Positions 16,600 through 37,297 of a stretch of 64,000 bases of DNA are shown piece after piece. Source of the stretch: Candidatus Moraniibacteriota bacterium. Lineage in GTDB: Bacteria; Patescibacteriota; Minisyncoccia; Moranbacterales; GWC2-37-73. The translations under genes were made by a program, and so were the position numbers. Numbering within the stretch: the first letter of the stretch is position 1; each line of letters begins with the position of its first letter. A model generated the notes under the pieces. It was not told where the DNA came from. It did no database searches and worked only from the letters and a program-made list of their open reading frames with translations. The stretch spans positions 33,221 through 97,220 of the forward strand of contig DAIUDF010000001.1 in the NCBI GenBank assembly GCA_036845785.1. The letters are read 5' to 3'.

Positions 16600-16629
16600 A
16601 AATTTTCTGATTCGTAGTTTTGAATCGCA

Positions 16630-16998: not shown

Positions 16999-17006
16999 AT
17001 TTCAGA

Positions 17007-18591: not shown

Positions 18592-18927
18592 CTACATTTT
18601 GATTTCAACATCGACTCCGGCCGGTAGGTCTAAACTGGTGAGATTCTCAATCGTTTTTGAATTCGGATTCCAAATATCAATAAGCCTCTTATGAATTCTC
18701 ATTTCATACTGGTCTCTGGAATTCTTATATACAAAGGTCGACTTATTGACAGTTACCTTGTGTATTTCTGTTGGAAGAGGAACCGGACCTGTGATTTGCG
18801 ATCCTGATCTTTCCGCAGTTTCCACAATTTTTTTGGCTGATTGGTCAATGACTTTGTTGTCATAGGCCTTGATCTTAATCCTGATCCTTGTGGACAATTG
18901 TTCTGAATCTGTTTTTTTCGCTGCCAT
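18592..18927 (-). CDS. rpsJ: 30S ribosomal protein S10
   Basis: IRIKIKAYD...GPVPLPT signature. Confidence 0.95.
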
Positions 18928-19022: not shown

Positions 19023-20216
19023 CTATTTGATGATTTTGGTGGCTGTTCCGGCTCCGACTGTTTTGCCTCCTTCGCGGATAGCGAAGCGCATTCCTTCTTC
19101 CATAGCTACCGGTGCAATCAATTTAATATTGATGTGCACAGTGTCTCCAGGCATAACCATTTCAGTTCCTTCTGGCAGAATAACTTCTCCGGTAACATCA
19201 GTTGTGCGGATATAGAACTGTGGTTTGTATCCTTTGAAGAAAGGAGTGTGTCTGCCGCCTTCTTCTTTGGTCAGAATATATATTTCACCTTCAAATTCAG
19301 TGTGAGGAGTGATTGAACCCGGTTTAGCCAAAACTTGTCCGCGCTCAACATCTTCTTTCTTAACACCGCGCAGCAGAAGTCCGGCATTGTCTCCAGCTTG
19401 TCCTTTGTCCAAAGATTTGTTGAACATTTCGATTCCGGTTACAACAGTCTTGGTAGTTGGCTTAAGACCAACAATTTCAACTTCTTCATTGATGCTGATG
19501 GTTCCGCGTTCAATTCTTCCGGTTACTACAGTTCCGCGGCCTTCAATTGAGAAAATATCTTCAATCGGCATCAAAAGAGGCTTGTCAGTGTCACGAACCG
19601 GTTCAGGAATTTTTGAGTCCAGTGCGGCAATCAAATCATAGATAGGTTTAGCATCAGCGTCTTCAGCTCCCTTAACTTCCAAAGCTTTGACAGCTGATCC
19701 ACGGATAACAGCGGCATTGTCGCCATCAAATTCATATTTGGAAAGCAGTTCGCGAACTTCTGTTTCAACCAAATCGATAAGTTCAGGATCATCAACCATG
19801 TCAACTTTGTTGATGAAAACAACGATCGCAGGCACGCCTACTTGTTTAGCCAAAAGGATGTGTTCGCGAGTCTGAGGCATAGGACCATCAGTTGCGCTCA
19901 CAACCAAAATTGCTCCGTCCATCTGAGCGGCGCCGGTAATCATGTTTTTGATGTAGTCAGCATGGCCAGGACAGTCAACATGAGCATAATGACGGGTGTC
20001 GGATTCATATTCGCAGTGTGAAGTTGCGATAGTGATTCCGCGTTCCTTTTCTTCTGGAGCGTTGTCGATTTCATTAACGCCTTTTTCCTTGGCAAAACCT
20101 TTAAGGCTCAGACAATGAAGAATAGCCGCGGTCAAAGTTGTTTTGCCGTGGTCAACATGTCCGATTGTGCCGACATTTACATGTGGCTTTGAACGTTCAA
20201 ATTTTTCTGCTGCCAT
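19023..20216 (-). CDS. tuf: elongation factor Tu
   Basis: [18 protein letters not shown] and NKVD motifs. Start at [12 protein letters not shown]. Confidence 0.95.
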
Positions 20217-20407
20217 ATTGATTTTTTTCGCGGCCAAAGGTTTTTTACTTTGGCACCACGCGATTAATTAAGATAATTTAATTATAAAATTATTGCATCT
20301 GTTTACTATACACTAAATTCCTTTTTCAGGCAAATTTAAAAAATCCGTCTGTGGAAAATTCAATACATGACTCATTCTACACGACCTATAAAATCTGTCA
20401 ACCCCGC

Positions 20408-20473
20408 ACTAACTTTAGGCAAGTGTACAACACTGGATTGCTTTCAGCAAGCCTAAAGTTAGTGCGGGGTCAA
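20408..20473. repeat. hairpin element family E with 12-bp terminal inverted repeats CCCCGCACTAAC/GTTAGTGCGGGG, two copies (20408-20473 and 59746-59810)
   Basis: The arms are identical and the interiors unrelated. One copy sits at the tuf-side edge of the island. Confidence 0.7.
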
Positions 20474-20612
20474 GCCCCCGCCAATTTGGCACTTTTGTCT
20501 TACCTTAGCCAATAACCAACCCTCAGAAAACCTAGGAATTTGAAGATTTTACTCACTATATCCACATTTTTAATACGTAGCGAAGTAAGTATTAAATTAT
20601 TCCGCCCAGAAA

Positions 20613-21032
20613 TTAGATTTTTTTTCTGAAGAAAATTGAAACAATGAAAATTAAAATGAAAAAGATCGAACCCATGACGCATGTCGGCAGGCCGAAGAAA
20701 TATGCGCTCGGTCCATTTTCAAAAAACAAGGACAATTCTCCCCAAGAAAAATAGCCGGCAAAAAGAACTCCCAAAAATGAAAACAAAAATAAAAGATTGG
20801 CCAAACATTTTGTCGCCTGTTCCTTGAAAAAAAGGACGACGGAAAAAATAAAAAGGAGGCAGAACATGACAAAGCCGTAGTAGCAGGCCGGAAAGCCCAG
20901 GAACAGCGGGCAAGTTTCCCCGAAAGCGCAGACAGATGAAAACATTTTGACTCCGCTCATATAGCCGGAAAACAATACTCCGCCCAGCGAAGCCAGCAAA
21001 AAGAAAATTTTAAAATTTTTGTATTTATCCAT
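20613..21032 (-). CDS. hypothetical polytopic membrane protein with internal 2-TM duplication
   Basis: Two repeated LGGVLFSGYMSG / LGVLFAGYFSWG modules, each followed by Cys residues. Start set at MDKYKNF (cat at 21030-21032). Confidence 0.5.
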   Translation of the reverse strand: MDKYKNFKIFFLLASLGGVLFSGYMSGVKMFSSVCAFGETCPLFLGFPACYYGFVMFCLLFIFSVVLFFKEQATKCLANLLFLFSFLGVLFAGYFSWGELSLFFENGPSAYFFGLPTCVMGSIFFILIFIVSIFFRKKI

Positions 21033-21093
21033 TTTATTAAATAAATAATTAATTAAGTAATTATTTCTGATCCGTTTTTCTTTTTTTACAATT

Positions 21094-21588
21094 TTATATT
21101 TCGGCAAAAAATATCATATAATTATGCCCGAATTTCTTGGCGCATTTCGGACAATAGGCATAGTGGATGTAATAATCCTTGGCCTTTTTCCCTGTCTCGG
21201 CCAGATATCCATCCATAACTTTGATAAATTTAGGAATATCATTATAGCCGCCATCAAAAACTCTGGAGATAAAATTTCCGGAAATCACAACGTTGTTTTC
21301 ATCCGGAACGTCTTTTTCCACCGCTACATATATCTCGCCCCTAAAAGGCGTCGGATCGCGGAACAATATCAGGGTGTCTTTTTTGTCCGGCGCGCCCGCC
21401 CCGACCTTTTCCACAGCCGTCCACATTCTGGTTATTTTTTTGCCGATCATCGGCGGAAAAGGGATATGGAAAAACTCCGGCATGGAATCTTTGATGAATT
21501 TTTTATTGTCCCAGCTCAATGTTTGCTTGTCCCATTTTTCTACACTAAATTCGGGACAGCATTCTTGTTTTTGATTTTCGTTGTTCAT
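21094..21588 (-). CDS. hypothetical protein
   Basis: 164-aa ORF. Its conserved GGCGGGGTAAGTAATTAAT leader motif is shared with two other island genes. No confident domain was recognised. Confidence 0.45.
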   Translation of the reverse strand: MNNENQKQECCPEFSVEKWDKQTLSWDNKKFIKDSMPEFFHIPFPPMIGKKITRMWTAVEKVGAGAPDKKDTLILFRDPTPFRGEIYVAVEKDVPDENNVVISGNFISRVFDGGYNDIPKFIKVMDGYLAETGKKAKDYYIHYAYCPKCAKKFGHNYMIFFAEI

Positions 21589-21686
21589 AGTTTTATTAAT
21601 TACGTAATTAATTACTTACCCCGTCAATTATATCTGATCAGAAAATGATTATCTTTATTTTTCCTTTGCTCGATTTTATTTTTTAT

Positions 21687-22964
21687 CTATTTTTTCGCTC
21701 TTTCTGATTGTTTAATTTTATTTATTATTACTTGCATTTTATCCCAATCTTTAAATTTTTTCCTAGTTAAAAAAAATTTTTTTAATTCTTCCTCGGGATT
21801 TACCGCTAAACTATATTTTTTGTGTGTCATTCTTTTTAAAATGCAGTGGATAATATTTCTTTCTGAAGAATAGGTCAGGGATGCCGGCATTTTTAAAATT
21901 GCATTTCTTGTTTCTTTAATATCATTGTCAAAAATCATGGTTAGAGTTTGAAAATTTCTTTTAGAAGTTTGGTAAGACTGATGGAAAAGCGATGGCTGTC
22001 TTAATGCAATTTTAATAAAATCTTCTTTGGAAAGTCCTAATATCTCGACTGAATTTTCAATATTTTTAACAATAGTCATGGGAGATTGATAAAAAAGCTG
22101 TGGATGCTTTAACGCAACTTCCAGAAATTCTTGTTTATCAATGCTTATAAGCTTTGATGTACTTTCAATATTATTATTTATCGTGCTTGGGTTAAGATAA
22201 AGAATTTGAGGAGCTTTAAGAGAGCTTTTTATAAACATCTCTTTTTTGATCCCTAATAATTCGGCCGAATTTTCAGCATTATTATTTATAGTTTCGGGAT
22301 ATTGAACTAAGAGCGATGGTCTTTTAAGAGCTGCGTTGAGAAATTTTTCTCTCGAAATACCCAACAATTTAGCTGAATTTTCGATATTACTATTGATAGT
22401 TTCTGGGAGCATACCAAAAAGTGACGGGTGTTTAATTGCAGCTTTAATAAATTCTTCTTCTGATATTCCTATTAGCTTAGCTGAATTTTTAATATTACTA
22501 TCGATAGTTTCTGGAGATTGACAAAAAAGTTGTGGCGTTTTAAATATGCACTTTTTCCATTCATCTGCTGACACATTAAAATTACGCATACTTCGCAAGA
22601 AATTATATTTGTATTTGTCTGATTTAAGAGTTTCCGGACGACATCTAAGAATTGCTTCGTTTGAAATAATCTTATTTACTTCATCATCTGTGAAAACAAT
22701 TTTTTGTTCTTCTTTTTGATTATCGGCAGGAATAGTTATTTTAAATTCGCAAAAAACTTTCCTCAGCTCAATTTTCCTTCTAGCTTTTGGACCTTGTTGA
22801 CCATTTTCTTGTCTATCTCTTTCTTCTTGCAGCGTTATTTCAGATTGAGCATAATCATCTCTGGAAGGCTCTCCGCTTTCATTTCTTTTCAGCTTCAAAT
22901 CAAGAGCTTTATCTCTTATTACATGTGCCTCATTTTCTGCTTTTTCAAACAAATACTTCTCCAT
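21687..22964 (-). CDS. tandem-repeat protein with about seven 36-aa mTERF-like repeats
   Basis: Repeats of the form F.KAA.KHPSLF.Q.PETINSNIENSAKLLGIS.EEF. The DNA shows matching 108-bp periodicity across 21950-22560. Confidence 0.6.
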   Translation of the reverse strand: MEKYLFEKAENEAHVIRDKALDLKLKRNESGEPSRDDYAQSEITLQEERDRQENGQQGPKARRKIELRKVFCEFKITIPADNQKEEQKIVFTDDEVNKIISNEAILRCRPETLKSDKYKYNFLRSMRNFNVSADEWKKCIFKTPQLFCQSPETIDSNIKNSAKLIGISEEEFIKAAIKHPSLFGMLPETINSNIENSAKLLGISREKFLNAALKRPSLLVQYPETINNNAENSAELLGIKKEMFIKSSLKAPQILYLNPSTINNNIESTSKLISIDKQEFLEVALKHPQLFYQSPMTIVKNIENSVEILGLSKEDFIKIALRQPSLFHQSYQTSKRNFQTLTMIFDNDIKETRNAILKMPASLTYSSERNIIHCILKRMTHKKYSLAVNPEEELKKFFLTRKKFKDWDKMQVIINKIKQSERAKK

Positions 22965-23014
22965 AAAAAATTTACTGTCTGTATTAATTACTTACTCCGC
23001 CAATCAGATTAATT

Positions 23015-23066
23015 ATACAATTCTTGGCTGTTTTTATTATATCACCAAATTAAAAAGGCCGATTTC
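23015..23066 (-). promoter_or_regulatory. conserved promoter/leader element F, two copies (23015-23066 and 24160-24215), with extended -10 TGATATAAT
   Basis: AATTATACAATTCTTGGCTGwTTTTATTATATCACCAAATTAAAAAGGCCG on the plus strand. The minus strand reads ttggTGaTATAATaaaa, then GGCGGGGTAAGTAATTAAT just before the ATG of the lipoprotein and repeat-protein genes. Confidence 0.45.
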
Positions 23067-23101
23067 ACATCCCCCTTCGGCATAAATTCAGGGGGATGTA
23101 A

Positions 23102-23374
23102 TCATTTTTTGCTAAAGAGACTTATCCGACGTTTTTCAACATAGACAATTTGCCACCATTTCTGGCCGATGAAATAGCCCGCAGCTACGCCCAAAAGCAG
23201 AAGGATGAAAGTTAGCATTGGCCAGACATATCCCCCGTTTCCAAGAATTGACGGGCCAGTACCTGATTTCAAAAGACTCTTAATATACCACAATTCCAAT
23301 CCGGCACGAGCAATCACCGAAAGCAGAATAAACAAAACAATGCTGGCAATTAAATATATTGTTTTTTTGGTCAT
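23102..23374 (-). CDS. small two-TM membrane protein
   Basis: 90 aa with two hydrophobic helices. Confidence 0.5.
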   Translation of the reverse strand: MTKKTIYLIASIVLFILLSVIARAGLELWYIKSLLKSGTGPSILGNGGYVWPMLTFILLLLGVAAGYFIGQKWWQIVYVEKRRISLFSKK

Positions 23375-23457
23375 AAATTTAATACCCTTCTTAATAATTA
23401 TAATTAATTTATACTTATTCCGGAATTCTTGAGAATACCGGAATAGTGTAATTTTGA

Positions 23458-24111
23458 TTATTTGTAATTTTTGATCGCTTCGCCTATCTTTATTGCAAAA
23501 TCAATGAATTTTCCGTTCTCAATCGTATTTTTTGAACTTGGCTTGATTGAAATAAATTTTTCCGGACTAAGTACAAAATAAATTTCACTGACAAGATCTC
23601 CTTGTGTAATTACTACATTATCCATAGGAATTTTAGGATTTTTTTCTACCTTATCTCCGGTCTGTTGATAAAAAAGTTTTTGATTTTCAATTTTTAAATA
23701 TTCCAGATTAAACAATAAATATTCCTTATCATTAAGATAATAGGAACAATTATAAAGACTTGCATATTTTGGCAGTTCGATTTTTACTACTTTTTGGCCT
23801 AAGGCATTTTCCACAAATTCTTTAGTAAACTGACCGCAGATATCTTCAACAATATAATAACTTTTGTCCTGACGACTTGGTTCTCCTGGATATTCCACAA
23901 AACAATTTTTAAGACGCTTTCCTGGTTCGCCATAACCTTCTATTGATACATTTTCTTTTTCGCAAGCTCCGTCTAAATTATCTTCAGTTGCTGGGGCTGA
24001 CGCTACACTTTCCGCATTATTATTTTTTTCAGCTTGATTGTTATTTGCACAACCGGAAAGAAAAATGGCTCCAACAATTAACATCGGCAGAATGATTATT
24101 TTTTTGTTCAT
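23458..24111 (-). CDS. putative lipoprotein
   Basis: Signal peptide with an LSGC lipobox. Confidence 0.55.
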   Translation of the reverse strand: MNKKIIILPMLIVGAIFLSGCANNNQAEKNNNAESVASAPATEDNLDGACEKENVSIEGYGEPGKRLKNCFVEYPGEPSRQDKSYYIVEDICGQFTKEFVENALGQKVVKIELPKYASLYNCSYYLNDKEYLLFNLEYLKIENQKLFYQQTGDKVEKNPKIPMDNVVITQGDLVSEIYFVLSPEKFISIKPSSKNTIENGKFIDFAIKIGEAIKNYK

Positions 24112-24265
24112 GGTTTTATTAAATAAATAATTAATTACTTACCCCGCCAAGCATGTTTAATTATACAATTCTTGGCTGATTTTATTATATCACCAAATTA
24201 AAAAGGCCGCTTTTAAACTTGTCTTGCGGCCTTTATAGATTGGAAAAATTTCCTTTTTCAACTCC

Positions 24266-24760
24266 TTACGTCCTTATAATCTTGTCTATAGCCATTTGCT
24301 CAGCGTTTTTGAGGATTTCCTCAATAAAAGGATCCCTGCGAAAAATGAGATGATCGGGCGTGTTATCGAAAACAAATGTTCTCCCAGTGAAAGGAAGAAA
24401 GGTTTCCCATCTATCCCCCTTAATCTGCATCGGGACTCCTCTCGTCGATTCAAGACCGCATTCTGCTGCAATTTTTTCTACCGCATCCCTACATTCAGCA
24501 GGGACGCTCATTACAGTCCAAATTTTTTTAGCCCAACGGATCGTGTGCATGAAAAAAAGCGCGCTCTGTTGGCTTTGCGGATTGAAATGCTTATGCTTCA
24601 CAGTCAGCATGCATTCCCTGATGCCAGGCGTATATGGTTCTTCTAATCCTACATACTGAATGAATCGCTTATTATTCAAAAGATCATTAAATTCTTCAGT
24701 CATAATGCCTATTGCCTGGGTTTTTGTTTCTTTTTTTAACAAGCTCTTCAATCGTATCAT
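24266..24760 (-). CDS. hypothetical protein
   Basis: 164-aa ORF with locally higher GC than its neighbours. No domain was recognised. Confidence 0.45.
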   Translation of the reverse strand: MIRLKSLLKKETKTQAIGIMTEEFNDLLNNKRFIQYVGLEEPYTPGIRECMLTVKHKHFNPQSQQSALFFMHTIRWAKKIWTVMSVPAECRDAVEKIAAECGLESTRGVPMQIKGDRWETFLPFTGRTFVFDNTPDHLIFRRDPFIEEILKNAEQMAIDKIIRT

Positions 24761-24895
24761 TTGAACCTCCTTTCATTAAATATTTGAGAGTTATTTTCTT
24801 TTTATAAGTTGTTAAAGAAGTGTTAAAAATATCACCACCTGTACATACCTAGGTACGCTCGCCCCGTAGCAAGCGAAGCTTTGCTTCTGGGGTAA

Positions 24896-25474
24896 TTAAT
24901 TATTTATTCTTTCAATCTCTTTTAACAAAAAATTTAAATCTTTTGACAATGGATTTCCTTTCCATCTTTTCAGGATTGATTTGATAGCCATTTGCTGATG
25001 ATTTAAGATTTTTTCTTTTGGCGCATTAAATCTGGCAAAAACTTCCTCTCTGTAACGATTATAATCATCCAACAATTCAGAAACGTTAGCAATAATATCA
25101 GCCGATTTAATTAGTAAAGAATCATGCGAAAAATTCTTTATGTGTTCCAATGCTTGCTTTTTCCTTTCCTCCCATGGTAATTTTTTCTCAATCTCTGTTA
25201 CACTCAAAACTCCTCTTGCAACTTTTTTACCGAATCTTTCTTCCAGCATTTTGGCATTTACTTTTTTCTGATCTATAGAATCCTCAATCGTATCGTGCAA
25301 AATTCCAGCCACAACTATGTCTTCTTTGGCTTTGATCAGTGAGAGGATAATCCCTACAGTTAATGGATGGGTTATATATGCGATATCTTTGCCTTTTCTT
25401 TTTTGCTTCTGATACACTTCGTGTGTTTTAGTGGCAAATTTTATCGCCTTTTGTATTTTTGGAGTATAGATCAT
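24896..25474 (-). CDS. HD-domain metal-dependent phosphohydrolase
   Basis: ITHPLTV...AGILHDTIED matches the HD motif. Confidence 0.7.
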   Translation of the reverse strand: MIYTPKIQKAIKFATKTHEVYQKQKRKGKDIAYITHPLTVGIILSLIKAKEDIVVAGILHDTIEDSIDQKKVNAKMLEERFGKKVARGVLSVTEIEKKLPWEERKKQALEHIKNFSHDSLLIKSADIIANVSELLDDYNRYREEVFARFNAPKEKILNHQQMAIKSILKRWKGNPLSKDLNFLLKEIERINN

Positions 25475-25571
25475 AATTTATTGTATACTTAGAATACTTT
25501 AAATTTTTTTGCATTCACCTCCCCCTTCGGCATAAATTCAGAGGTACGTAATTAATTACGTAAATTCAAAT

Positions 25572-26591
25572 TTATTCCTCATTATTTCTAATTCTTCCCC
25601 AATTTATTCTATCCAATTCTGGTTTTAATCTTGATACTAATAAATCTAATCTATCCAAAATTTCATTCACATCTTCTTGATCAAATTCAATTTTATTTGT
25701 TGTAGAATAAACATTATATAATTTTGACCAATTTTTGCCCCACTTAGCTTTTAACTTAAAAATTTTATCACTCTTAGATAAATCTTTTTGCACATTCTTC
25801 ATTATTTTAAGTAATTTATTTCTTCTTTTCTTAGTAAAATCATGAATCAAATGGGATTTAGCAAATTCAACATGAAAAGCTATTTCAAACTGCGCTTTAT
25901 CGCTTGCTTTAGTTATTTTTTTAGAAGTTATTTCAAAATGTAAAAATGGATTTCCTATTTTTTCTTTAATTTGAATCATATGTCTAAACTGAGTCCTGTT
26001 TTCCATTAGTCCTTCAGCAATTGGCTGATTTAAAAATTTATTTAGAATTTCTTGTAAAATTTGCTCTCTGGTATAAATTTTTCTCAACTTAATTAGCAGC
26101 GGTTTAGCTGGAATACCTAATTCACATTTTTTACTATTCGCAAAAAAAACTCCTATAGAAGATCCGAAATCACCTAGATTTTTTAACATTAATTTAGCCG
26201 AAGGTAATAATTTGTCCTTTTTTTCTAGAGGTAAAGTTACAAAAAAACAAGCACGGATGGCTTTATTTTCAAGAAAAGTTGAAACATCTTCTAGCTCCAA
26301 TCTTTCTTGTTGAGTTATTTTTTCAAGAAATTCATAACCTTTCTCCTGGATAACTGACATATAGGCAATAAGCTGGCCAACTGCATGGCCGATCGAAGCA
26401 ACATTTCCAGATCTTTTCCCTTCACTAATATAGAAACATTTTTCGTTTTGATTATAGGCCAGAACATCAAGGAAGCCAGCTGAAAATTTAAATTCCGTAA
26501 CAGAAAAATTACATTTGAATTTACTTTTGAAATAATTTTTAGTCGGCTGATTTAATTGTTTGTCTTCTGGGTTGTTCATAAGTTCTGGCAA
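25572..26591 (-). CDS. hypothetical protein with N-terminal PD-(D/E)xK nuclease-like motif
   Basis: FLDVLAY...ISEGK fits a D...ExK arrangement. It is the last gene of a tightly packed six-gene operon. Confidence 0.45.
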   Translation of the reverse strand: MPELMNNPEDKQLNQPTKNYFKSKFKCNFSVTEFKFSAGFLDVLAYNQNEKCFYISEGKRSGNVASIGHAVGQLIAYMSVIQEKGYEFLEKITQQERLELEDVSTFLENKAIRACFFVTLPLEKKDKLLPSAKLMLKNLGDFGSSIGVFFANSKKCELGIPAKPLLIKLRKIYTREQILQEILNKFLNQPIAEGLMENRTQFRHMIQIKEKIGNPFLHFEITSKKITKASDKAQFEIAFHVEFAKSHLIHDFTKKRRNKLLKIMKNVQKDLSKSDKIFKLKAKWGKNWSKLYNVYSTTNKIEFDQEDVNEILDRLDLLVSRLKPELDRINWGRIRNNEE

Positions 26592-26607
26592 GTAATTAAT
26601 TACGTAA

Positions 26608-26793
26608 TTATCTATTATATTTTTTATTACAAGATGGACAATATTTCCAATTTCCTGTTATCTTAACACCACAAATACATTTTCTCATTCCATATCTCGC
26701 CTTATTTTCTTTTTGCACTTTTTCCCAGCAGTCATTACAATATATACTTTTTATATACTTTGATTGATAACCACATTTTCTACATTTTCCCAT
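26608..26793 (-). CDS. small zinc-ribbon protein
   Basis: 61 aa containing CxxC...CxxC...CxC...CxxC. Confidence 0.5.
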   Translation of the reverse strand: MGKCRKCGYQSKYIKSIYCNDCWEKVQKENKARYGMRKCICGVKITGNWKYCPSCNKKYNR

Positions 26794-26808
26794 AAATTTT
26801 TTATCCTA

Positions 26809-27912
26809 TTATTTCCCCGATTTAGTTCGATTGTCTTGTTTGCAAAGCATCTGACAATTTTCAGCAATTGTTTTTCCGCCCTCATGCCAAGGTTTGATAT
26901 GATCAGCTTCCATCTCGCCTATTTTAAAATGTTCACTGCATTTCGGACAAATTCCATTTTGTCTTTCATAAGCTTCACGCTTCATTTTGTCAGTAAACGC
27001 CCGAATCGAAAGATATTTTTCCTGTCTGGTTAAAACATACGGATAAATTCCGGATTTTTTCGTCACATCTTCATCCTGCATTAAATCTTTGATTTCGGTT
27101 TCAAGTTTTTTAGTATCTAGTTTTTTATCTTTAAATTCATTATATAATTCACCCCACTGCACGTTTTTCATTTCTTTGCGATAATTTATGAAAGTTTTTC
27201 TGGCCCACTCAATAACATTTTGAAAATATTCCCACAATTCTTCGGCATTTTTGTCGTGCTGATGTTTGGCCATATAGTCTTCAATTTTTCCATCATTTAT
27301 CCATGAAATTGCAGTTTCTAAATATTCTTGCCGAATTGGCGAACCACTAACTAACCCACCTCCATCATTGGCCAGAAGATAAGCTGCGCAATTTGATTTA
27401 CTGAATTTTAGTTTTGCATCAGAAAGCCACGGACCAGTATAGACAGCATTTCTAAGTTCTTGGTCAGTCAATTTCTCGCCGGCAATATTAATAATTTTAA
27501 ACCAATCTAATCGCTCTTTGTCACTGCCTTCGCAAAAATAGATCATGAGTTCATAATTCAGAATCTGTTCTTGTTCTTCTTTGGTTAGATTGTGAAACGC
27601 AGCTAGTCTACCGTTGAATTCAACAGAATAATTACCTTCTTTATATTCCGCAATACTAATTGTTCTTTGTTGACCATCAAGCACTTCAAAATTTCCCTGA
27701 TCAGTTTTGACCCAATACATTACATTAAGTGGAAAACTGTTTTTGATTGTTTCAATCACAGCATCGCGCTGTTTGCCGGTGTATACAAACTCCCGTTGAT
27801 ATTTCGGACGAATATCCAACTTGCCGCCATAAGCCACCACGCCTTCTTCGTGACTGTCCTTATAGCCATTGATAACGTCCCGCACCGAAATTCTTTGTAG
27901 TTCAATTTTCAT
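26809..27912 (-). CDS. DUF262 (ParB-like, DGQQR) plus HNH nuclease, GmrSD/SspE-like defense nuclease candidate
   Basis: VLDGQQRTISI is the DUF262 hallmark. The C-terminal ADHIKPWHEGGKTIAENCQMLCKQDNRTK is an HNH motif. Confidence 0.75.
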   Translation of the reverse strand: MKIELQRISVRDVINGYKDSHEEGVVAYGGKLDIRPKYQREFVYTGKQRDAVIETIKNSFPLNVMYWVKTDQGNFEVLDGQQRTISIAEYKEGNYSVEFNGRLAAFHNLTKEEQEQILNYELMIYFCEGSDKERLDWFKIINIAGEKLTDQELRNAVYTGPWLSDAKLKFSKSNCAAYLLANDGGGLVSGSPIRQEYLETAISWINDGKIEDYMAKHQHDKNAEELWEYFQNVIEWARKTFINYRKEMKNVQWGELYNEFKDKKLDTKKLETEIKDLMQDEDVTKKSGIYPYVLTRQEKYLSIRAFTDKMKREAYERQNGICPKCSEHFKIGEMEADHIKPWHEGGKTIAENCQMLCKQDNRTKSGK

Positions 27913-27918
27913 ATTATT

Positions 27919-28413
27919 TTAATTTTTGAAATAATTGTTATCAATAATAAATTGGTTGACTTTTTGACTTATTTTTTCAATAACTTCTAATTTTGGCATT
28001 TTTTTATATCCATACATCATTTCTAATAACATTTCATCTGAAAAATAATCAAATCCTTTTTTAAAATATAATTTATTAACATTTTTAAGATTTTTTTTGT
28101 CTTTCTTTGAAAAAATATTAATAAATAATAATTCAAATTCTTTAATTACTTTCTCTAAATTATGCTTGATACTTATTGCTAAAAAACGTTTTTTAGACTT
28201 AGTGCATTCTTTGCTTAAAATTGCTGCTTTCAATCCCCTTTCTATTGAAGATAAATACATAGAATATTTAGCTAACGAAAAATGCTTTTGCTTGTATGAT
28301 TCTGCCGAATTATGAAAATCGTCTGAAATTTTGGCTAGCATATAAGGAGTAATCGAAATAGCTAAAGGATCGCATTTTATTAAACAATGTTTATTCTTAA
28401 CTTGTAGTTTCAT
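27919..28413 (-). CDS. hypothetical protein (operon member)
   Basis: 164 aa, very AT-rich, 6 bp downstream of the preceding gene. Confidence 0.45.
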   Translation of the reverse strand: MKLQVKNKHCLIKCDPLAISITPYMLAKISDDFHNSAESYKQKHFSLAKYSMYLSSIERGLKAAILSKECTKSKKRFLAISIKHNLEKVIKEFELLFINIFSKKDKKNLKNVNKLYFKKGFDYFSDEMLLEMMYGYKKMPKLEVIEKISQKVNQFIIDNNYFKN

Positions 28414-28451
28414 AAAATTCCTTATTATTTTTTTATTTTTAATTAAAATAT

Positions 28452-28730
28452 CTAATCAATTTTAAATAGAGATTTAAAATTATCTACTAAATCAATTTTA
28501 TAAATGAACGCTGTGACAGATAAAATAAGTGCTAATATTGAGATTATTAAAGATGCTAATGAAATTTTTTTCTGATAACCAGTTATATGCTTATTCATTT
28601 CTAATTGCAGTCTATTTGAATGGCTTAGCCATAAGCCGCATTTTTTACATTCGGAAACCCCTGGCCCATCTCTTCCATCATAAGTTAAAATTCTCCAATC
28701 ATGCTTACAATTTAGTTGATCTTTTGACAT
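28452..28730 (-). CDS. small zinc-ribbon protein with C-terminal TM helix
   Basis: CKHDW...CKKCG followed by a hydrophobic helix. Confidence 0.45.
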   Translation of the reverse strand: MSKDQLNCKHDWRILTYDGRDGPGVSECKKCGLWLSHSNRLQLEMNKHITGYQKKISLASLIISILALILSVTAFIYKIDLVDNFKSLFKID

Positions 28731-28753
28731 AGATATTTTTAATTATCGGACAA

Positions 28754-29818
28754 CTATTTTTTCACTTTCTTATTTTTAATTAATATACGTCGAAATAACA
28801 TTTTTCCATTTATAGTAAAGTCTTTATCTCCATTTTTTCCTGTATATCTATCTAATCCTATTATTTCAAATTGACTAGGATTATGATAATTAAGAAAAGT
28901 AATTGGCACACCCATTACTCCATCATAATCCATAGGAATATCAATATATCTATTTACATTAATCCCATTATAATTATCATATTTTAAATATTCTTTAGGG
29001 TTATATTTTTTATATAATGTGAGATCTTTGTGACGACTAGCAACATCAAGATTGGTATACCAATTAACACTTCCCATGCTGAAATATTTCACTCCGTTAA
29101 CAATTTTCTTCCTCGATTCCGTAGGAATATCATAATCCATTGGGACTTGAAACCATTTTGTTCCACCATTATCATATCCAAGCCAAACTTTATTTTCTTT
29201 TATCAAAGGAAAAAATTCTTTATAAATCACTGCGCCTTGCTGACCTAATATTAAAAAATTTTTATTATGTTTTACTAATTGATCTACATATTCCCTAAAC
29301 AATGAAAACGGCGGATTAGTGACAACCATGTCCGCTTGTTTTAACAGCTCTATACTTTCTTGACTTCTAAAATCCCCTTCTCCCTGGAGCGGCGCCCATT
29401 CATTATTTTTATTGTCTTTGAGTTGCTGGGCAATATCATTCAAATCAAAAGCTCCGTTATTATCAAGATCACCAACTTCATTAATAATAAATTTGTTAGC
29501 AGTTGTTTTTGGGCGGCCCTTTTTTACTGTAAGTGTTTTGTCATCGCCAAATAGGCTAAGTTGAGTGTTGGCAATCGGCGATGGCTTATAGCTGGTAGCC
29601 ATAAGTTTTTTCAAACCCAAAGCATTGAAATTTGATGCAAAATATTTGAAAAAATTACTTTCAAACGGATCGTCGCAATTACAATAAACCACTTTCCCAC
29701 GAAACTGGTCTTTATAATGCATGAGTTCCTTTTCAATATCAACCAGCTGAGTGTAAAACTCATCTTTTTTGGCCTTGTTTGCCTTGTGCAAGTTTTTATT
29801 CGACGATTTATTTTCCAT
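28754..29818 (-). CDS. N6-adenine DNA methyltransferase (NPPF motif, gamma-type order)
   Basis: DEFYTQ N-terminal motif, CNCDDPFESNFF (motif I-like), and VVTNPPF (motif IV). Confidence 0.7.
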   Translation of the reverse strand: MENKSSNKNLHKANKAKKDEFYTQLVDIEKELMHYKDQFRGKVVYCNCDDPFESNFFKYFASNFNALGLKKLMATSYKPSPIANTQLSLFGDDKTLTVKKGRPKTTANKFIINEVGDLDNNGAFDLNDIAQQLKDNKNNEWAPLQGEGDFRSQESIELLKQADMVVTNPPFSLFREYVDQLVKHNKNFLILGQQGAVIYKEFFPLIKENKVWLGYDNGGTKWFQVPMDYDIPTESRKKIVNGVKYFSMGSVNWYTNLDVASRHKDLTLYKKYNPKEYLKYDNYNGINVNRYIDIPMDYDGVMGVPITFLNYHNPSQFEIIGLDRYTGKNGDKDFTINGKMLFRRILIKNKKVKK

Positions 29819-29994
29819 AATTTTATAAAAACTAATTTTCCTTTAAATAAAGCAATTTTTCTTGATTTTTGAAAATTATCCACAGGGGCTTGAAATAATT
29901 ATAAGAATATGGTAGTATCTATACATAGACAAGTAAATTCCTTATGCGTGGGGTTCCGGATGGTTCCTCTTAAATAGCGCATAAGGTTTTGTTT

Positions 29995-30633
29995 TTATGG
30001 GAATAATGGACTTTCTTCAACGATTTTCTGCCTTATTAAATTATAATAGCTCTCATCTCCTAATTCTTTTTTCTTATATATCGCCCAGCAAATAAAATCA
30101 ACCGCCTGCAAGCACTTTTCAGCTTCAGGTGTTTTTATTTTTACACAAATATCAAGTTTATGATTATTCTTAACCTGATTTTCTAAATAATTTTTAAAAT
30201 TATCATTAAGAAATCTGTTTGTTTCACGCCTAGAAGCTATTAAAATTATTGGCGAATCTAGTGAAATAAGTTTTTTGGTGAATATTCTATCCAATAATAT
30301 ATTAGAAACATAATTATAAAGGACGTGTTTTTCATCTCTGAGTTTGGTATATACTTTCGCCTTATTTAGATGTATGGAAAGAACTGAAATATCTTTTTCA
30401 TTTAGCATTCCCAATGTTTTTATAATTGTCTTTGGTTTTTCTTTGCAAGCATGCAAAATTCCGACATGCTTTTTAAGCTCCTTCTTGCTTAAATTTCTAG
30501 CAACTTTTTTAATTACTTTTTCTACAGGACCTTTATTTTTAACAAATAAAAAAGTAACCACAAAAAATTTTGAAGATTTCTTGTTCGAATCAAATCCTAA
30601 GTCTCCACTTTCATCCAAAAATATATATGCCAT
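29995..30633 (-). CDS. DUF3800 family protein
   Basis: MAYIFLDESGDLG N-terminal signature. Confidence 0.65.
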   Translation of the reverse strand: MAYIFLDESGDLGFDSNKKSSKFFVVTFLFVKNKGPVEKVIKKVARNLSKKELKKHVGILHACKEKPKTIIKTLGMLNEKDISVLSIHLNKAKVYTKLRDEKHVLYNYVSNILLDRIFTKKLISLDSPIILIASRRETNRFLNDNFKNYLENQVKNNHKLDICVKIKTPEAEKCLQAVDFICWAIYKKKELGDESYYNLIRQKIVEESPLFP

Positions 30634-30750
30634 TTTTTATTTTCCCCAATCCACGTAAAACAATTTCATTATCACGTGGCTGTGCTTTAATTATTTTTTT
30701 GAATAATAATCCTTAATCATCAGCCCACCCCGGTTAAATACGATTTGAGC

Positions 30751-31809
30751 CTATTTTCTAAAAACATAGGCGGAGGCGGGACCTTTGCCTACTTGTTTTA
30801 TTGACCCGATTTTTTTGAGTTTTTGAAGATGCAACTGAGCTGTCCTCTTGGGACAATTCAGAATATCAACCACATCGTTCACGTTTATTTTTCCAAGCTT
30901 ATCCAAAAAATCCAAAATTTTCATCTGATCCTTGTCCAGATAGATTTGCGAATTAACATCCGCATCAATTTTCATGGCGGAAAGCGAGATTATTTTGTTT
31001 TTGACATTGTCAATTTCCTCTTTGAAACCTTTGGAGAAATATTCCAGCCATAAAGTGAAATCAGTTTTTCTTTCATCATAAGTCTTGCCTATATTGATAG
31101 CTTTATAATATCGTTGTCTATCTTTGTTGTAATAATCTTCCAAAGCAAAAAGTTTTCTGAAGTCATAGCCCCGCTTATAGAGAATAAGAGTGGCCAACGC
31201 CCTGGCTGTCCTGCCATTGCCATCATTGAATGGATGGATGGCAGCAATTTCCTGATGGGCTATGCCAGCCACAATGATCGGGCTAGTGTCTTTTTTCTTA
31301 CTATCTTCTATCCAAGAAATAAGATCAGCGCAAAGTTTCGGAACTTTCTTGGCATCCGGGCCTGTATACATAACCTCATTAGGAAAGCCTAAGCGCCTTC
31401 TGACGATATAGACCGGACCTTTTCTGTAGTGTCCTGACGATTCCTCATCCAATGTTTTGTCTGTAACTAATTTATGTATTTTAAGCAAAACTTTTTCGGT
31501 AATCGCCTGCTTTTTTTTGACGACTTGCTCGATATATTTCAAAGCATTGAGATAATTTTGCACTTCAAAAATTTCTCTCTGGGGAGCATCCACTTTTTTC
31601 CGGCCAACTAAAGCTTCAACTTCGTGCATATTGAGCTGGTTGCCTTCAATGGCAGTTGAGCTATGAGTCATCCTGATCAAAGCTTGCCGGCGCAATTTCA
31701 GCTCATTTTTAGGAAGAATCTTGGCTCGCTCAATAACTGCCTTGGCCTCAGCCACCGCAGTCAACATTTTTACAATATTGTCAGTAATTTTATATTTTGG
31801 ATTAAACAT
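30751..31809 (-). CDS. fic: Fic-family protein (AMPylator-type) with C-terminal wHTH
   Basis: HPFNDGNGRTARA matches the HxFx(D/E)GNGRxxR Fic motif. Confidence 0.85.
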   Translation of the reverse strand: MFNPKYKITDNIVKMLTAVAEAKAVIERAKILPKNELKLRRQALIRMTHSSTAIEGNQLNMHEVEALVGRKKVDAPQREIFEVQNYLNALKYIEQVVKKKQAITEKVLLKIHKLVTDKTLDEESSGHYRKGPVYIVRRRLGFPNEVMYTGPDAKKVPKLCADLISWIEDSKKKDTSPIIVAGIAHQEIAAIHPFNDGNGRTARALATLILYKRGYDFRKLFALEDYYNKDRQRYYKAINIGKTYDERKTDFTLWLEYFSKGFKEEIDNVKNKIISLSAMKIDADVNSQIYLDKDQMKILDFLDKLGKINVNDVVDILNCPKRTAQLHLQKLKKIGSIKQVGKGPASAYVFRK

Positions 31810-31910
31810 ATCGATATAGAAAGTATAGCATGTTTTTGATAATCACGCAATAATCGCGCAAAGAATCGCGCAAAGTTTTTTTCGCCCACTTTCGGAATTC
31901 TATATTTATT

Positions 31911-31985
31911 ATTTTTTTGAATAATAATCCTTAATCATCAGCCCGCCCCAGTTAAATATCGCTTCGCTATTTAACGGGGTAAACC
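31911..31985. repeat. palindromic element family G (ccccGTTAAATA...TATTTAACgggg). Copies at 30688-30750 (degenerate), 31911-31985, 32724-32800, 33260-33320, 42481-42540 and 48313-48362 (inside comEC)
   Basis: Three copies share the upstream TTTTTTGAATAATAATCCTTAATCATCAGCCCGCCCC block plus a 12-bp-stem hairpin. All six carry the GTTAAAT/ATTTAAC arms. Confidence 0.8.
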
Positions 31986-32165
31986 TTATCTTTTTTTCCA
32001 GTCCCTTATTACAAAACCGCCCTTAATTTTTTTAACGGTTATTTTTTGCCGCTCCTTCCACCCCAGTTCCCTAACAACTTCAATAGGCAGAGTTAAACCG
32101 ATTGAGTGTTTTCCAATTTTTGTTAATTTTCGCACATTTTTTTCGTTTGATTTTTTGTTTGCCAT
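31986..32165 (-). CDS. AbrB/MazE/SpoVT-type swapped-hairpin small DNA-binding protein (antitoxin-like), 59 aa
   Basis: Complement translates to MANKKSNEKNVRKLTKIGKHSIGLTLPIEVVRELGWKERQKITVKKIKGGFVIRDWKKR. It is absent from the ORF track, presumably because it is under 60 aa. Confidence 0.6.
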   Translation of the reverse strand: MANKKSNEKNVRKLTKIGKHSIGLTLPIEVVRELGWKERQKITVKKIKGGFVIRDWKKR

Positions 32166-32199
32166 ATTTTTTTGTTGCTACTTATAATTCTAATAAAAT

Positions 32200-32646
32200 T
32201 TATCGAACCTTTGCGAAAAGATAAACATCATAATATTTCCCGTTTTTGCAGACTTCTTTCCTTAATATTCCCTCCAACTTAAATTTATTCTTCTCCAAAA
32301 CTCTTGCCGATGCTTTATTCGGGAGATACACCTTTGCTGTAACTCTTTTTAATTTTAATTTGTCAAAACATAGCTTCACCAGCTCTCTTGTGACCTCGGT
32401 AATCAAACCTTTGCCCCAATGCTTTTTTGCCAGCCAGTAACCGATCTCCGCCTGATGCCCGTTTCTATGTATTCCGCAACTGCCAGCAACTTCACCTTCA
32501 ATTTCAATGGCAAGGTTTACCCTGTCCTTCCTTTTTAGGTTAAGTGCTTTTTTCAGAAAAATATTCGCTTCTTTGGATCCGTAAGGATACGGCACTACTG
32601 ACATATAGCGGCCAATGTCGGGATCATTTATATTTTTTATCAGCAC
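32200..32646 (-). CDS. GNAT N-acetyltransferase (RimJ/RimL-like)
   Basis: GIHRNGHQAEIGYWLAKKHWGKGL...ARVLEKNKFKLEG acetyl-CoA-binding region. Confidence 0.8.
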   Translation of the reverse strand: MLIKNINDPDIGRYMSVVPYPYGSKEANIFLKKALNLKRKDRVNLAIEIEGEVAGSCGIHRNGHQAEIGYWLAKKHWGKGLITEVTRELVKLCFDKLKLKRVTAKVYLPNKASARVLEKNKFKLEGILRKEVCKNGKYYDVYLFAKVR

Positions 32647-32783
32647 ATCCTTATCTGTTTTTTTGTAATTTCTGATTATAAACCGCTTGGTTTTGATCGG
32701 CTTGATTTTCGTATATTTATGTTAATTATTTTTTGAATAATAATCCTTAATCATCAGCCCGCCCCCGGTTAAATATCGCTTCG

Positions 32784-33224
32784 CTATTTAACAGGGTAAA
32801 TCTTCCTTACATTTTCTTTGTTTGGTTCTTCGTTTGGTTCTTTGTTTTCCTTACGTCTTCCCCTGGATTCAAGCTCTAGCACAACTGCTTCATAGTACGC
32901 AGGATGACTTTTTATTTTAGTTTCATCTGCAGCTATTATGATATCCATCAATTCTATACTTGATGCATCATGCACAAGAGCTCTGCGTTTTTGAACATTT
33001 TCAGAACTTATAGCACCTGGGCTTGAATGCCTCAAACTAATCAGGGTTTCAACTACCCATTCCTTATTTTCTAAGTATTTTTTACATTTTTCATCTAAAA
33101 AAGCTTTCTCTTCAGCTGAAAGTTTATATTTTTTATCACTCGTATTTCTTGTTTCTTCTTGATTAGCTTTTTTTATTTCTGCTTTTCGACCCGATGGAAC
33201 CGGGAATTGTATTAATTCTCCCAT
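32784..33224 (-). CDS. hypothetical protein (cassette)
   Basis: 146-aa ORF bounded by palindromic repeat copies. Confidence 0.4.
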   Translation of the reverse strand: MGELIQFPVPSGRKAEIKKANQEETRNTSDKKYKLSAEEKAFLDEKCKKYLENKEWVVETLISLRHSSPGAISSENVQKRRALVHDASSIELMDIIIAADETKIKSHPAYYEAVVLELESRGRRKENKEPNEEPNKENVRKIYPVK

Positions 33225-33349
33225 AATTTTATTTTATTAAATAATTTATTTTTTACTTTTAAAATCTCTCACTACCAACGCACCCCCAGTTAAATATCGC
33301 TTCACTATTTAACGGGGCAAGCGTACTTCAATTCTACGCCTAAAAATCC

Positions 33350-33396
33350 CCCTTAGCAAAAGAAAAAGGCTTGGCGACACAATCGTCACCAAGCCT
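33350..33396 (-). terminator. intrinsic terminator after 33409..33828
   Basis: ggcttggcgacacaatcgtcaccaagcc hairpin followed by a T-run on the minus strand. Confidence 0.6.
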
Positions 33397-33408
33397 TCGG
33401 TTTATTTG

Positions 33409-33828
33409 TTACGGAAAATCTATAAGACTCTCCACTTTTCCCTTGAGATAATTCAGGCCCTTTTCATCAATGAAGACGTTTGATTCTTTATCAAACATGG
33501 CAATCCAATCTTCAGGGTATTTGAAAGCAGCAAGTTTTTCCAGAGCTTCTTTCTCTTCAGGACTGCCCTTTTTGGTTTCCTGATAAGCCAAAAGTGTCTC
33601 TTCGACATCTTTGGCTTTATCCAGCATTTTTTTGAGAATAATTTTGAGAAGGCGTTCCCGGTATTTGTCTTTTTCATAAAAACGTACAACTTTGGTATAT
33701 ATGCCCTCCCAATCGTTGAAATCGAATTTGTCTTTGGCTTCTTTTGAAAGTTTGCCTAGATACATGGTACGCGTCCGGCTCACTCCAACTTTGCGTGCAA
33801 ATTTTTCAAATGGTATTTTATTATCCAC
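33409..33828 (-). CDS. hypothetical protein with possible N-terminal HTH
   Basis: FEKFARKVGVSRTRT is HTH-like. An intrinsic terminator lies just downstream. Confidence 0.45.
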   Translation of the reverse strand: MDNKIPFEKFARKVGVSRTRTMYLGKLSKEAKDKFDFNDWEGIYTKVVRFYEKDKYRERLLKIILKKMLDKAKDVEETLLAYQETKKGSPEEKEALEKLAAFKYPEDWIAMFDKESNVFIDEKGLNYLKGKVESLIDFP

Positions 33829-33961
33829 TTTAAACCCTCCAATATAGAATTGTTGCCTTCAATGTGATTAGAAATAAAAATTTTTACCCACCTCCTTGTG
33901 CTGAATTATCATCTTAAAGAACAACAGCAATATATTACATCTTCTATGACTGTTGTCAAGC

Positions 33962-33990
33962 CATAAAAAACAGCCCCGAAGGGCTGCTTT
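33962..33990 (-). terminator. intrinsic terminator after fusA (island boundary)
   Basis: cagccccgaagggctg hairpin followed by T6 on the minus strand. Confidence 0.65.
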
Positions 33991-34017
33991 TGTAAAAAGT
34001 ATTCAAATTTCTATAAG

Positions 34018-36228: not shown

Positions 36229-36696
36229 TTATGCGAAGTGGGCAAAGGCTTTGTTGGCTTCAGCCATACGGTGCACATCTTCGCGTTTCTTGATAGAAGA
36301 TCCGGTTTTGTTGGAAGCATCAATAAGTTCGTCTGCCAATTTTTCTGCCATTTTCTTGCCTTTGCGGCTTCTGACAGCTGCCAAAATCCAGCGGATAGCC
36401 AAAGTCTGTCGGCGTTCACCGCTAACTTGGATCGGCACTTGATAGTTGGCGCCTCCTACTCTTTTTGATTTAAGTTCCAAAAGCGGTGAAACATTTTTGA
36501 TAGCTTGTTCAAAAACATTAAGTCCGCCCTTTTTGGTTCTTTCATGAATAACGTCAAAGCAATCGTAAATGATTTTTTCCGCCACGCTGCGTTTGCCATT
36601 TTTCATGACATTGCCAATCAGTCTGCCGACCAGCATATTTCCATATCGCGAATCAGCTTTCCATTGTTTTTTATATATTCTTTTTCGTCTAGCCAT
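36229..36696 (-). CDS. rpsG: 30S ribosomal protein S7
   Basis: S7 signature. Confidence 0.95.
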   Translation of the reverse strand: MARRKRIYKKQWKADSRYGNMLVGRLIGNVMKNGKRSVAEKIIYDCFDVIHERTKKGGLNVFEQAIKNVSPLLELKSKRVGGANYQVPIQVSGERRQTLAIRWILAAVRSRKGKKMAEKLADELIDASNKTGSSIKKREDVHRMAEANKAFAHFA

Positions 36697-36874: not shown

Positions 36875-37297
36875 TTATTCTGTTTTCGCTTTCGGTCTCT
36901 TGGTGCCGTACATGCTGCGGCTTCTTTTCCTGTTTTCTGTTCCAGCCGTATCCAAAACTCCGCGCACCACGTGATAGCGCACGCCGGAAAGATCCTTCAC
37001 GCGTCCTCCGCGGATCATAACGATTGAGTGTTCCTGCAGATTATGTCCGATGCCCGGGATATAGGCGGTAACTTCCATGCCGTTGGTCAATTTGACGCGG
37101 GCTATTTTCCGAAGAGCTGAGTTTGGTTTTTTCGGCGTTGTGGTTCCGACTTTGGTGCAAACTCCACGCTTAAAAGGACCAACTGTTTTGACCGGCTTAT
37201 TTTTGAGCGTATTAAAAGTCATGCTCATGGCTGGTGACTTTGTCTTCTTTTTGATTGATTTCCTGTTTTTCTTTACTAACTGATTTATTGTAGGCAT
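36875..37297 (-). CDS. rpsL: 30S ribosomal protein S12
   Basis: [10 protein letters not shown]...[10 protein letters not shown] signature. Confidence 0.95.

Follow-up and report, generated by a model that had tools for sequence, protein, structure and literature searches.

Core-gene-flanked defence hotspots (cDHS) are known from Pseudomonas aeruginosa, and similar loci have been described in E. coli and Acinetobacter (PMC10250203, PMC11723918). For the candidate phyla radiation (CPR), an IslandViewer survey of Patescibacteria reported that the genomes hold islands, including restriction-modification (R-M) genes, and that translation genes (ribosomal proteins, tuf) occur in or near predicted islands (PMC12455944). 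Here we describe a locus that can be compared with these systems, found in a 64,000-nucleotide stretch of DNA from Candidatus Moraniibacteriota bacterium (assembly GCA_036845785.1, contig DAIUDF010000001.1, positions 33,221 to 97,220), in the following called the window. In this window fusA is 13.8 kb away from tuf, and the intervening DNA has 19 open reading frames (ORFs), every one on the minus strand. The str-S10 cluster generally counts as the most stable part of a bacterial chromosome and is used routinely for phylogeny and for quality control of metagenome-assembled genomes. We interpret the fusA-tuf interval of the Candidatus Moranbacteria lineage as an integrase-free hotspot for accessory and defence genes that is anchored by two ultra-conserved core genes, and we give this reading a probability of about 0.78. 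A description of a fusA-tuf hotspot was not found in the literature.

Translation of the window ORFs bore out the gene order and coordinates given by the initial annotation, with rpsL-rpsG-fusA (37297-34018) on one side of the 19 genes and tuf-rpsJ (20216-18592) on the other. Specifically, the upstream flank consists of rpsL (S12, 36875..37297), recognized by translation and by the Pfam family Ribosom_S12_S23 on an identical contig, rpsG (S7, 36229..36696), recognized by translation and by the Pfam annotation of the identical contig, and fusA (elongation factor EF-G, 34018..36096). Downstream follow tuf (EF-Tu, 19023..20216) and rpsJ (S10, 18592..18927), with which the S10 operon starts. All five genes are on the minus strand, as is nearly every gene of the window, and the co-directionality of the island is therefore unremarkable. 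The exact EF-G and EF-Tu proteins were recovered on contigs from several samples and assemblers, and both junctions were reproduced at 99.99-100% identity on contigs of JGI 3300010355 (123.7 kb), ENA ERZ27257428 (118 kb) and ENA ERZ761564 (39 kb). Since these independent metagenome assemblies from different samples carry the same fusA-island and island-tuf junctions, a chimeric join, which the initial annotation had considered, is excluded.

The occupancy of the interval varies between related species. Eleven Moranbacteria relatives with fusA 75-94% identical were found via EF-G homologues (word-index protein search) and contig look-ups. Their flanks are syntenic, with NDK, NUDIX, DUF553, YgjP-like, RNase H-like, M50 peptidase, rpsL and rpsG genes upstream and the S10 operon downstream; M50 peptidase-rpsL-rpsG-fusA upstream together with tuf-rpsJ-S10 operon downstream was seen in L091, L094, L097, L112, L114 and L011. 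Between these flanks lie 0.59 kb to >10 kb, with cargo that is nearly all different. The shortest intervals measure 0.59 kb in L114 (EF-G identity 83%), 0.95 kb in L091 (94%), 1.06 kb in L011 (75%), 2.0 kb in L112 (88%; DUF3276 and two ORFs) and 2.2 kb in L094 (94%), followed by 8.0 kb in L097 (90%; DUF5655, MNT-HEPN, DUF3276, Alr and EamA). Intervals of >10 kb are present in L092 (93%), with a 622-aa ORF, RhuM-Fic, amidase, GNAT, MazE-like, DUF5655, a HinfI restriction endonuclease and two methyltransferases, and in L113 (87%), with cation efflux, RecQ-like and HD genes. L093 (94%), whose contig ends, carries RhuM-Fic and DUF3800 genes, and in L095 and L096 (both 90%) reversed PGM and RecG genes precede strain-specific cargo. 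Defence-type cargo among these relatives comprises HinfI R-M, type IIG and type I components, MNT-HEPN and RhuM-Fic. Of the 19 genes of the island only three recur as homologues at this site in relatives, namely the hypothetical gene h139 (44% identical, in L092), an AbrB-like gene (42-62%; 62% in L092 and 42% in L094) and the DUF3800 gene (82.5%, in L093). Conservation of the 19 genes across the lineage, which the initial annotation had named as a refuting observation, is not seen: in relatives with 83-94% identical EF-G the intervals measure 0.6-8.0 kb or >10 kb and contain different genes.

A wider scan of GTDB by EF-G gave matches among which the closest relatives were not included. Among the matches listed, the spacer measured 3-417 nt at all 37 non-CPR loci with tuf detected downstream of fusA. 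CPR spacers among the same matches were 202, 663, 1064 and 2377 nt, or no tuf occurred within 10 kb; in the latter loci fusA was followed by housekeeping genes or, in L050, by a type IV secretion system (T4SS) coupling-protein gene. The fusA-tuf linkage is already loose across the CPR generally. The earlier statement that fusA and tuf are adjacent in almost all bacteria fits these 37 non-CPR loci better than the CPR.

Cargo was also found to differ between strains. Two contigs that come from sister samples, L009 and L010, agree with the window between tuf and ~21055-21084 and diverge from it upstream of this junction (21055..21084). An ArsM-like methyltransferase gene there replaces the PF20603 hydrolase gene of the window, and both contigs end in it; positions 1-183 of each (...CVAGALMKEDYISKVKNAGFEVEI...) encode what we take to be the C-terminus of an ArsM-type methyltransferase. 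Past the junction L009 differs from the window by only four single-nucleotide polymorphisms (SNPs; 21009, 20922, 20900 and 20877), all within 180 nt, and the next ~11.8 kb are identical. Under a uniform expectation the probability of such clustering is ~(180/12030)^4 = 5e-8. A homologous-recombination tract with its end in the shared VKOR-like gene would leave just such a cluster, and we regard it as the footprint of such an event. A second strain pair, L095 and L096, has identical EF-G and is 99.8% identical until an abrupt change of cargo. Contigs from other samples (L004 and L005 at window 31888, L006 at window 32736) stop at or inside copies of a boundary repeat, D4, and these ends could mark further strain variation at cassette boundaries. 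When metagenomes were scanned with the VKOR-like protein as anchor, the only matches were one same-species contig and distant homologues unlinked to tuf. They added no strain variants and showed this gene to be accessory at the fusA-tuf site.

The composition of the island is deviant. GC is 33.3% vs 38.0% outside (standard deviation of 4-kb windows 1.6), in line with the AT-richness noted by the initial annotation, and the tetranucleotide distance between the island and the rest of the window is 0.242 vs 0.156 +/- 0.021, with the extreme at 25-31 kb. The same annotation had proposed a hotspot for horizontally acquired genes inside a core operon, and variable occupancy, strain swaps and deviant composition all support this. 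Elsewhere in the window, positions 42000-48000 around tRNA-Pro (44898-44969) and the ComEC genes also have a lower GC (0.32-0.36), with a mildly raised tetranucleotide distance.

The borders of the variable segment are exact. Nucleotide homology with all relatives stops at the fusA stop codon and is regained at 20401-20406, so that the variable segment is ~20402-34017. Directly 3' of fusA stands a real intrinsic terminator (33962..33990, minus strand) with a GC stem and U-tract (-16.4 kcal/mol), as had been noted earlier, and terminators in the same position occur in L091 and L011. It is followed immediately by a promoter-like site, TTGACA-16-TAATAT (33932..33959, minus strand), which opens the island and lies in an intergenic module that is in part common to L093 and L092. 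At the other border, where homology with relatives resumes, a tuf promoter (TTGACA-17-TGTAGAAT) and a ~170-nt leader (20217..20401, minus strand) are conserved across four genomes (the window, L091 12889-13030, L094 14093-14267 and L097 20050-20083). The leader contains the invariant blocks TTTCC...GGA.TTTTT and AAATTATCTTAA; it gave no Rfam match and no convincing conserved consensus structure, and may be an uncharacterised regulatory leader.

Abutting the tuf promoter is a hairpin (20401..20470, minus strand) with perfect 20-bp arms and a 30-nt loop (-51.6 kcal/mol, z -5.6). The initial annotation, which had placed it slightly differently, was right about the structure, but its interpretation as a terminal inverted repeat of the island had to be rejected: the hairpin belongs to a dispersed palindrome family, with a second copy at 59738-59803 in an unrelated intergenic region far outside the island. 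Both copies have the same outer stem (CCCCGCACTAAC...GTTAGTGCGGGG) and different inner stems and loops. The element is mirrored in part in L094, with the same ACCCCG...CGGGGT base, another inner stem and a fold that is not significant (z -1.8), and it is absent from L091 and L097; a conserved structural role is unproven. Rfam searches of the whole window at gathering thresholds returned tRNA-Pro as the only match, and a search of 18.5-37.5 kb at E<=1 returned two chance-level matches, including 'mir-1784' on the edge hairpin (E 0.8). Rfam detected neither a known leader or riboswitch nor a DUF3800 RNA motif.

Taken as a mechanism, this layout would mean that in this clade the str genes form two transcription units: rpsL-rpsG-fusA, which ends at the terminator, and tuf-S10, which has a strong promoter and a leader to itself. 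DNA between the two units would then leave the expression of the essential genes undisturbed. On this reading the slot holds self-contained units that bring along a promoter-like upstream module and an end hairpin of their own. They are a six-gene R-M operon with a PD-(D/E)xK protein, the SoFic-like Fic, the DUF3800 gene, the GNAT and AbrB-like genes as a pair, the SpoT-like hydrolase, and envelope and other accessory genes. Gain, loss and replacement of cargo would proceed mainly through homologous recombination in shared flanks or shared neighbouring cassettes. Incoming DNA would most likely arrive by natural transformation, which is plausible because ComEC is encoded at 46400-48846, 13 kb from the island. 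The variability among species and strains, the exact borders, the insulation signals and one recombination footprint are observed; with respect to the uptake route, the selective reason for the site and any anti-phage activity of the cargo, we infer rather than observe. A bolder reading, which we hold only tentatively and consider doubtful as it stands, is that the fusA-tuf junction is a lineage-wide, recombinase-independent exchange slot of Moranbacteria and perhaps other Patescibacteria, in which promoter-bearing, hairpin-bounded cassettes are swapped by transformation and homologous recombination with the two most conserved protein genes as universal anchors. If true, a tiny host-dependent genome would sample defence and accessory genes across species without mobile-element machinery.

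The largest unit of the cargo is a set of six genes separated by gaps of only 23, 38, 6, 15 and 28 nt, and therefore taken to be one operon. Like all cargo genes they are on the minus strand, and families were assigned here and below with Pfam, PADLOC and NCBIfam. The first gene (28754..29818) encodes an EcoRI-family N6-adenine methyltransferase of type II (PF13651 EcoRI_methylase 7e-130; PADLOC MTase_II 2e-122, full length). It is followed by h92 (28452..28730), a small zinc-ribbon/transmembrane protein of 92 aa (GC 28.7%), and by the hypothetical h164b (27919..28413) of 164 aa (GC 22.6%), which together (27919-28730) have the lowest GC in the window and no family match in Pfam, PADLOC or PHROGs. 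Next come a DUF262 (GmrSD_N) protein with an HNH nuclease domain (26809..27912; PADLOC REase_II 3e-144, full length), a 61-aa double zinc-ribbon protein (26608..26793) and, as last gene, h339 (25572..26579). By family and by linkage in one operon, with two ORFs between them, the methyltransferase and the DUF262-HNH protein form a type II R-M pair with predicted sequence-specific cleavage. Avoidance of GAATTC in the window, as a clue to specificity, amounted to a mild, non-significant depletion (25 observed vs 35 +/- 5.7 expected). Homologues of the nuclease, 54-60% identical, lie directly after and overlap an EcoRI-family methylase on plasmids of Aeromonas, Mammaliicoccus, Macrococcoides, Chryseobacterium, Sulfitobacter, Gordonia and Variovorax, which span Proteobacteria, Firmicutes, Bacteroidetes and Actinobacteria. 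Judged from this distribution, the R-M pair is a widely transferred mobile module, expanded here by two inserted ORFs of 23-29% GC. The h339 protein has an N-terminal PD-(D/E)xK nuclease fold, with an alpha-beta-beta-beta-alpha-beta core and D...(D/E)xK catalytic residues, as the earlier call of a PD-(D/E)xK-like protein had it, and belongs to a rare family of 16 proteins. A homologue with 56% identity is located in L110 (1-13014) among SIR2_2, DUF6765, Exo_endo_phos, CTD10, MC6 and DUF2326 genes, a neighbourhood resembling those of conflict systems, which suggests that the h339 family may be a defence-island component.

The remaining cargo is more diverse. From the fusA side it begins with two hypothetical genes, h139 (33409..33828) and h146 (32784..33224), followed by a GNAT acetyltransferase (32200..32646; Acetyltransf_3, RimL/RimJ-like below cut-off) and a 59-aa AbrB/MazE-like protein (31986..32165) with weak matches below cut-offs. 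A conserved GNAT/AbrB toxin-antitoxin (TA) pair was considered and is unsupported; in three genomes the AbrB-like gene is preceded by genes whose products show no homology to one another. The Fic protein with a C-terminal winged helix-turn-helix (30751..31809) is SoFic-like: PADLOC SoFic matches with 2e-57 over residues 9-350, the motif is HPFNDGNGRTAR (expected HxFx(D/E)GNGRxxR), and the NCBIfam equivalog scores 65.5 vs a cut-off of 550. It is of a different type from the Fic of L092. A DUF3800 gene (29995..30633) separates it from the R-M operon. On the tuf side of the operon are an HD_4/SpoT-like small hydrolase (24896..25474), the hypothetical h164 (24266..24760), a lipoprotein (23458..24111) whose signal peptide has an LSGC lipobox, a 90-aa membrane protein (23102..23374), an mTERF-repeat protein (21687..22964), the PF20603 'Bact_hydrolase' (21094..21588), whose place is taken by the ArsM-like gene in the co-occurring strain, and a VKOR-like protein with four transmembrane segments (20613..21032; weak Pfam match). 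The last two had been left unnamed by the initial annotation. Its calls of an EcoRI-family methyltransferase, DUF262/GmrSD_N with HNH, HD, DUF3800, Fic and GNAT were all confirmed, and its lipoprotein and repeat protein could be recognized from the lipobox and the mTERF repeats; for its AbrB-like protein only the weak matches were obtained.

Among the alternatives, the one that survives best, though we consider it unlikely, is that the 13.8 kb are a single integrated mobile element (a strict genomic island, a remnant of an integrative mobilizable or conjugative element, a prophage or a transposon) that targets the fusA-tuf spacer. The atypical composition would fit such an element, as would the occurrence of the R-M pair elsewhere on plasmids beside integrases and recombinases and the T4SS coupling-protein gene that follows fusA in the distant CPR locus L050. 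However, no integrase, transposase, relaxase or phage family was found among the 19 ORFs with Pfam, PADLOC and PHROGs, and no recombinase gene stands at either end. A prophage was rejected, PHROGs giving only an unknown-function family for DUF3800 and a signal-peptide match. The two island ends share no direct or inverted repeats of at least 10 nt that could represent attL and attR, and the edge hairpin, with its second copy at 59.7 kb, is a dispersed palindrome. Furthermore, the block is a mosaic, in which three genes (DUF3800, h139 and the AbrB-like one) also occur at this site in relatives, with approximately the divergence of the flanks, and the rest is unique; sub-blocks have unequal GC (35.7%, 32.6% and 36.3%), and only parts of the block have so far been found separately. 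The locus has the marks of an accessory hotspot, with the same core flanks, cargo that differs between genomes and strains and includes near-empty states, and no integrase, transposase or att sites.

It is less probable still that the island is an old, vertically inherited, lineage-specific block left by a single split of the str operon. DUF3800, h139 and the AbrB-like gene are indeed common to relatives at the same site, and separation of fusA and tuf is common in the CPR, but relatives with 94% identical EF-G hold 0.95-2.2 kb of unrelated sequence, cargo differs among strains of the same species, and the composition is deviant; the data already contradict this reading.

A further alternative concerns the repeats that bound some of the cargo genes. 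D4, an element of ~75 nt consisting of a hairpin (GTTAAATAGCGAAGCGATATTTAAC) and a tail, occurs in four copies (33250-33320, 32729-32799, 31912-31982 and 30695-30765, minus strand), which separate h139, h146, GNAT-AbrB, Fic and DUF3800 from one another. An integron-like cassette array, with D4 and other repeated hairpins as attC-like recombination sites, would account for the co-directional genes and for the repeated imperfect palindromes (~75 nt) at the edges of many of them. The GTTAAAT...ATTTAAC of the D4 hairpin resembles the core-site consensus of integrons, and GNAT, TA-like, lipoprotein and unknown genes are cargo types like those of chromosomal integron cassettes. We nevertheless regard this reading as very improbable. 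No tyrosine recombinase was found beside the array or in the annotated 37 kb around it (no Phage_integrase match, no adjacent intI), the motif order GTTRRRY...RYYYAAC is the reverse of that in attC (RYYYAAC...GTTRRRY), D4 follows only 4 of the 19 genes, and the cassettes bear promoter-like modules of their own. D4 was also not found in the island of any relative, and similar palindromic repeats in the spacers of the S10 operon point to a genome-wide feature. Lastly, an artefact of assembly or binning that joined two unrelated contigs, for which only the a-priori rarity of the arrangement speaks, is already refuted by the identical junctions in the 123.7-kb, 118-kb and 39-kb contigs from different samples and assemblers.

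Several points weigh against the hotspot interpretation itself. About half of the cargo (including the VKOR-like protein, the hydrolase, the lipoprotein, the mTERF protein and the membrane protein) has no recognisable defence or toxin signature, and for this reason 'accessory hotspot' is a safer term than 'defence island'; the defence- and toxin-like content emphasised by the initial annotation describes only part of the island. The nucleotide identity of fusA and tuf is only 76-83% between the sampled species, too divergent for efficient homologous recombination, which leaves the first entry of novel cargo into the lineage unexplained. In L095 and L096 and in the distant CPR loci L022, L025 and L048, fusA is followed by housekeeping genes (PGM, RecG, TsaD, holB and HisG), and there the linkage with tuf is simply broken by rearrangement. 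The recombination footprint is based on one strain pair, and the ends of L004-L006 may be assembly breaks at repeats instead of real variation.

Other repeats are found in and around the island. A shared module, TTG(A/G)CGGGGTAAGTAATTAAT..., is present upstream of the mTERF, lipoprotein and hydrolase genes. The 10-bp palindrome TAATTAATTA has six copies in the window (0.37 expected), all in the tuf-proximal half of the island (21046, 21605, 24128, 24893, 25549 and 26593). Five of them precede a start codon by 15-85 nt (those of the VKOR-like, hydrolase, lipoprotein, HD and h339 genes), and the sixth, at 24893, overlaps the stop codon of HD and precedes h164 by 133 nt. From these positions, TAATTAATTA may be a shared operator or promoter element. 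D4, TAATTAATTA and the shared module were not found in the islands of relatives, and scans of viral contigs gave no match for the D4 tail and the shared promoter-like module.

Outside the island, the S10/spc spacers (window 9218-18405) and the rpsL-rpsG spacer (36691-36781) are filled by repeated elements of 60-170 nt with 2-4 copies each. Element D2 occurs in the L18|S5, L5|S14, L14|L24 and S17|L14 spacers, D5/D8 in L29|S17, L22|S3 and part of rpsL|rpsG, D9 in L24|L5 and S10|L3, and D6 in S8|L6, S3|L16 and L3|L4; D2 and D5/D8 fold as long hairpins (z -4.5 to -5.4). The same ribosomal spacers measure 7-67 nt in L091 (94% EF-G identity), and the repeats look like a lineage-specific spread of palindromic elements of the REP or MITE (repetitive extragenic palindrome or miniature inverted-repeat transposable element) type in the ribosomal operon. 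A second small variable spot lies between the M50 peptidase gene and rpsL (window 37712-40155), where a 449-aa ParB-like protein on the plus strand (weak ParB_N/HTH_ParB) and a family-less 391-aa ORF are encoded; relatives have nothing or one small gene at this position.

If the hotspot interpretation holds, even the str-S10 ribosomal supercluster can host an accessory region of fast turnover, provided that its flanks are insulated by a terminator on one side and a promoter of their own on the other. The phage defence of uncultivated CPR bacteria is poorly known, and fusA and tuf could serve as anchors (for polymerase chain reaction, long reads or assembly-graph walks) to recover strain-variable defence cargo from them. 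The locus is also a warning that contigs with these marker genes will fragment at the fusA-tuf site. Two candidates for functional work are the rare PD-(D/E)xK family and the R-M operon, in which a common plasmid pair is expanded to six genes.

In comparison with described systems, the R-M genes are closest to the plasmid module of Aeromonas caviae p1 and Mammaliicoccus sciuri pH8C110P-cfr, which consists of the same two families with the methyltransferase first and a nuclease 54-60% identical. The genes overlap in the plasmid module, whereas the island pair is split by two very AT-rich small ORFs and is followed by the zinc-ribbon and PD-(D/E)xK genes. With the canonical str operon (rpsL-rpsG-fusA-tufA, in E. 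coli and most bacteria) the locus shares the order and orientation of rpsL-rpsG-fusA ... tuf-rpsJ; unlike in that operon, a terminator ends fusA, tuf has its own conserved promoter, and 13.8 kb lie between. The island survey of Patescibacteria (PMC12455944) contains no fusA-tuf hotspot and no comparative occupancy of a fixed site. The closest resemblance is to the cDHS: in both, the locus is fixed between core genes, the cargo is variable, includes R-M and defence genes and is sometimes missing altogether, and dedicated mobility genes are lacking. Here, however, the flanks are fusA and tuf in the most conserved bacterial gene cluster, the host belongs to the uncultivated CPR and has a genome of only ~1 Mb, and recognisable defence genes make up no more than part of the cargo, their enrichment being putative. 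The principle of such hotspots is already established; what is unusual here, and of practical use, is the placement within the str-S10 supercluster of a CPR bacterium.

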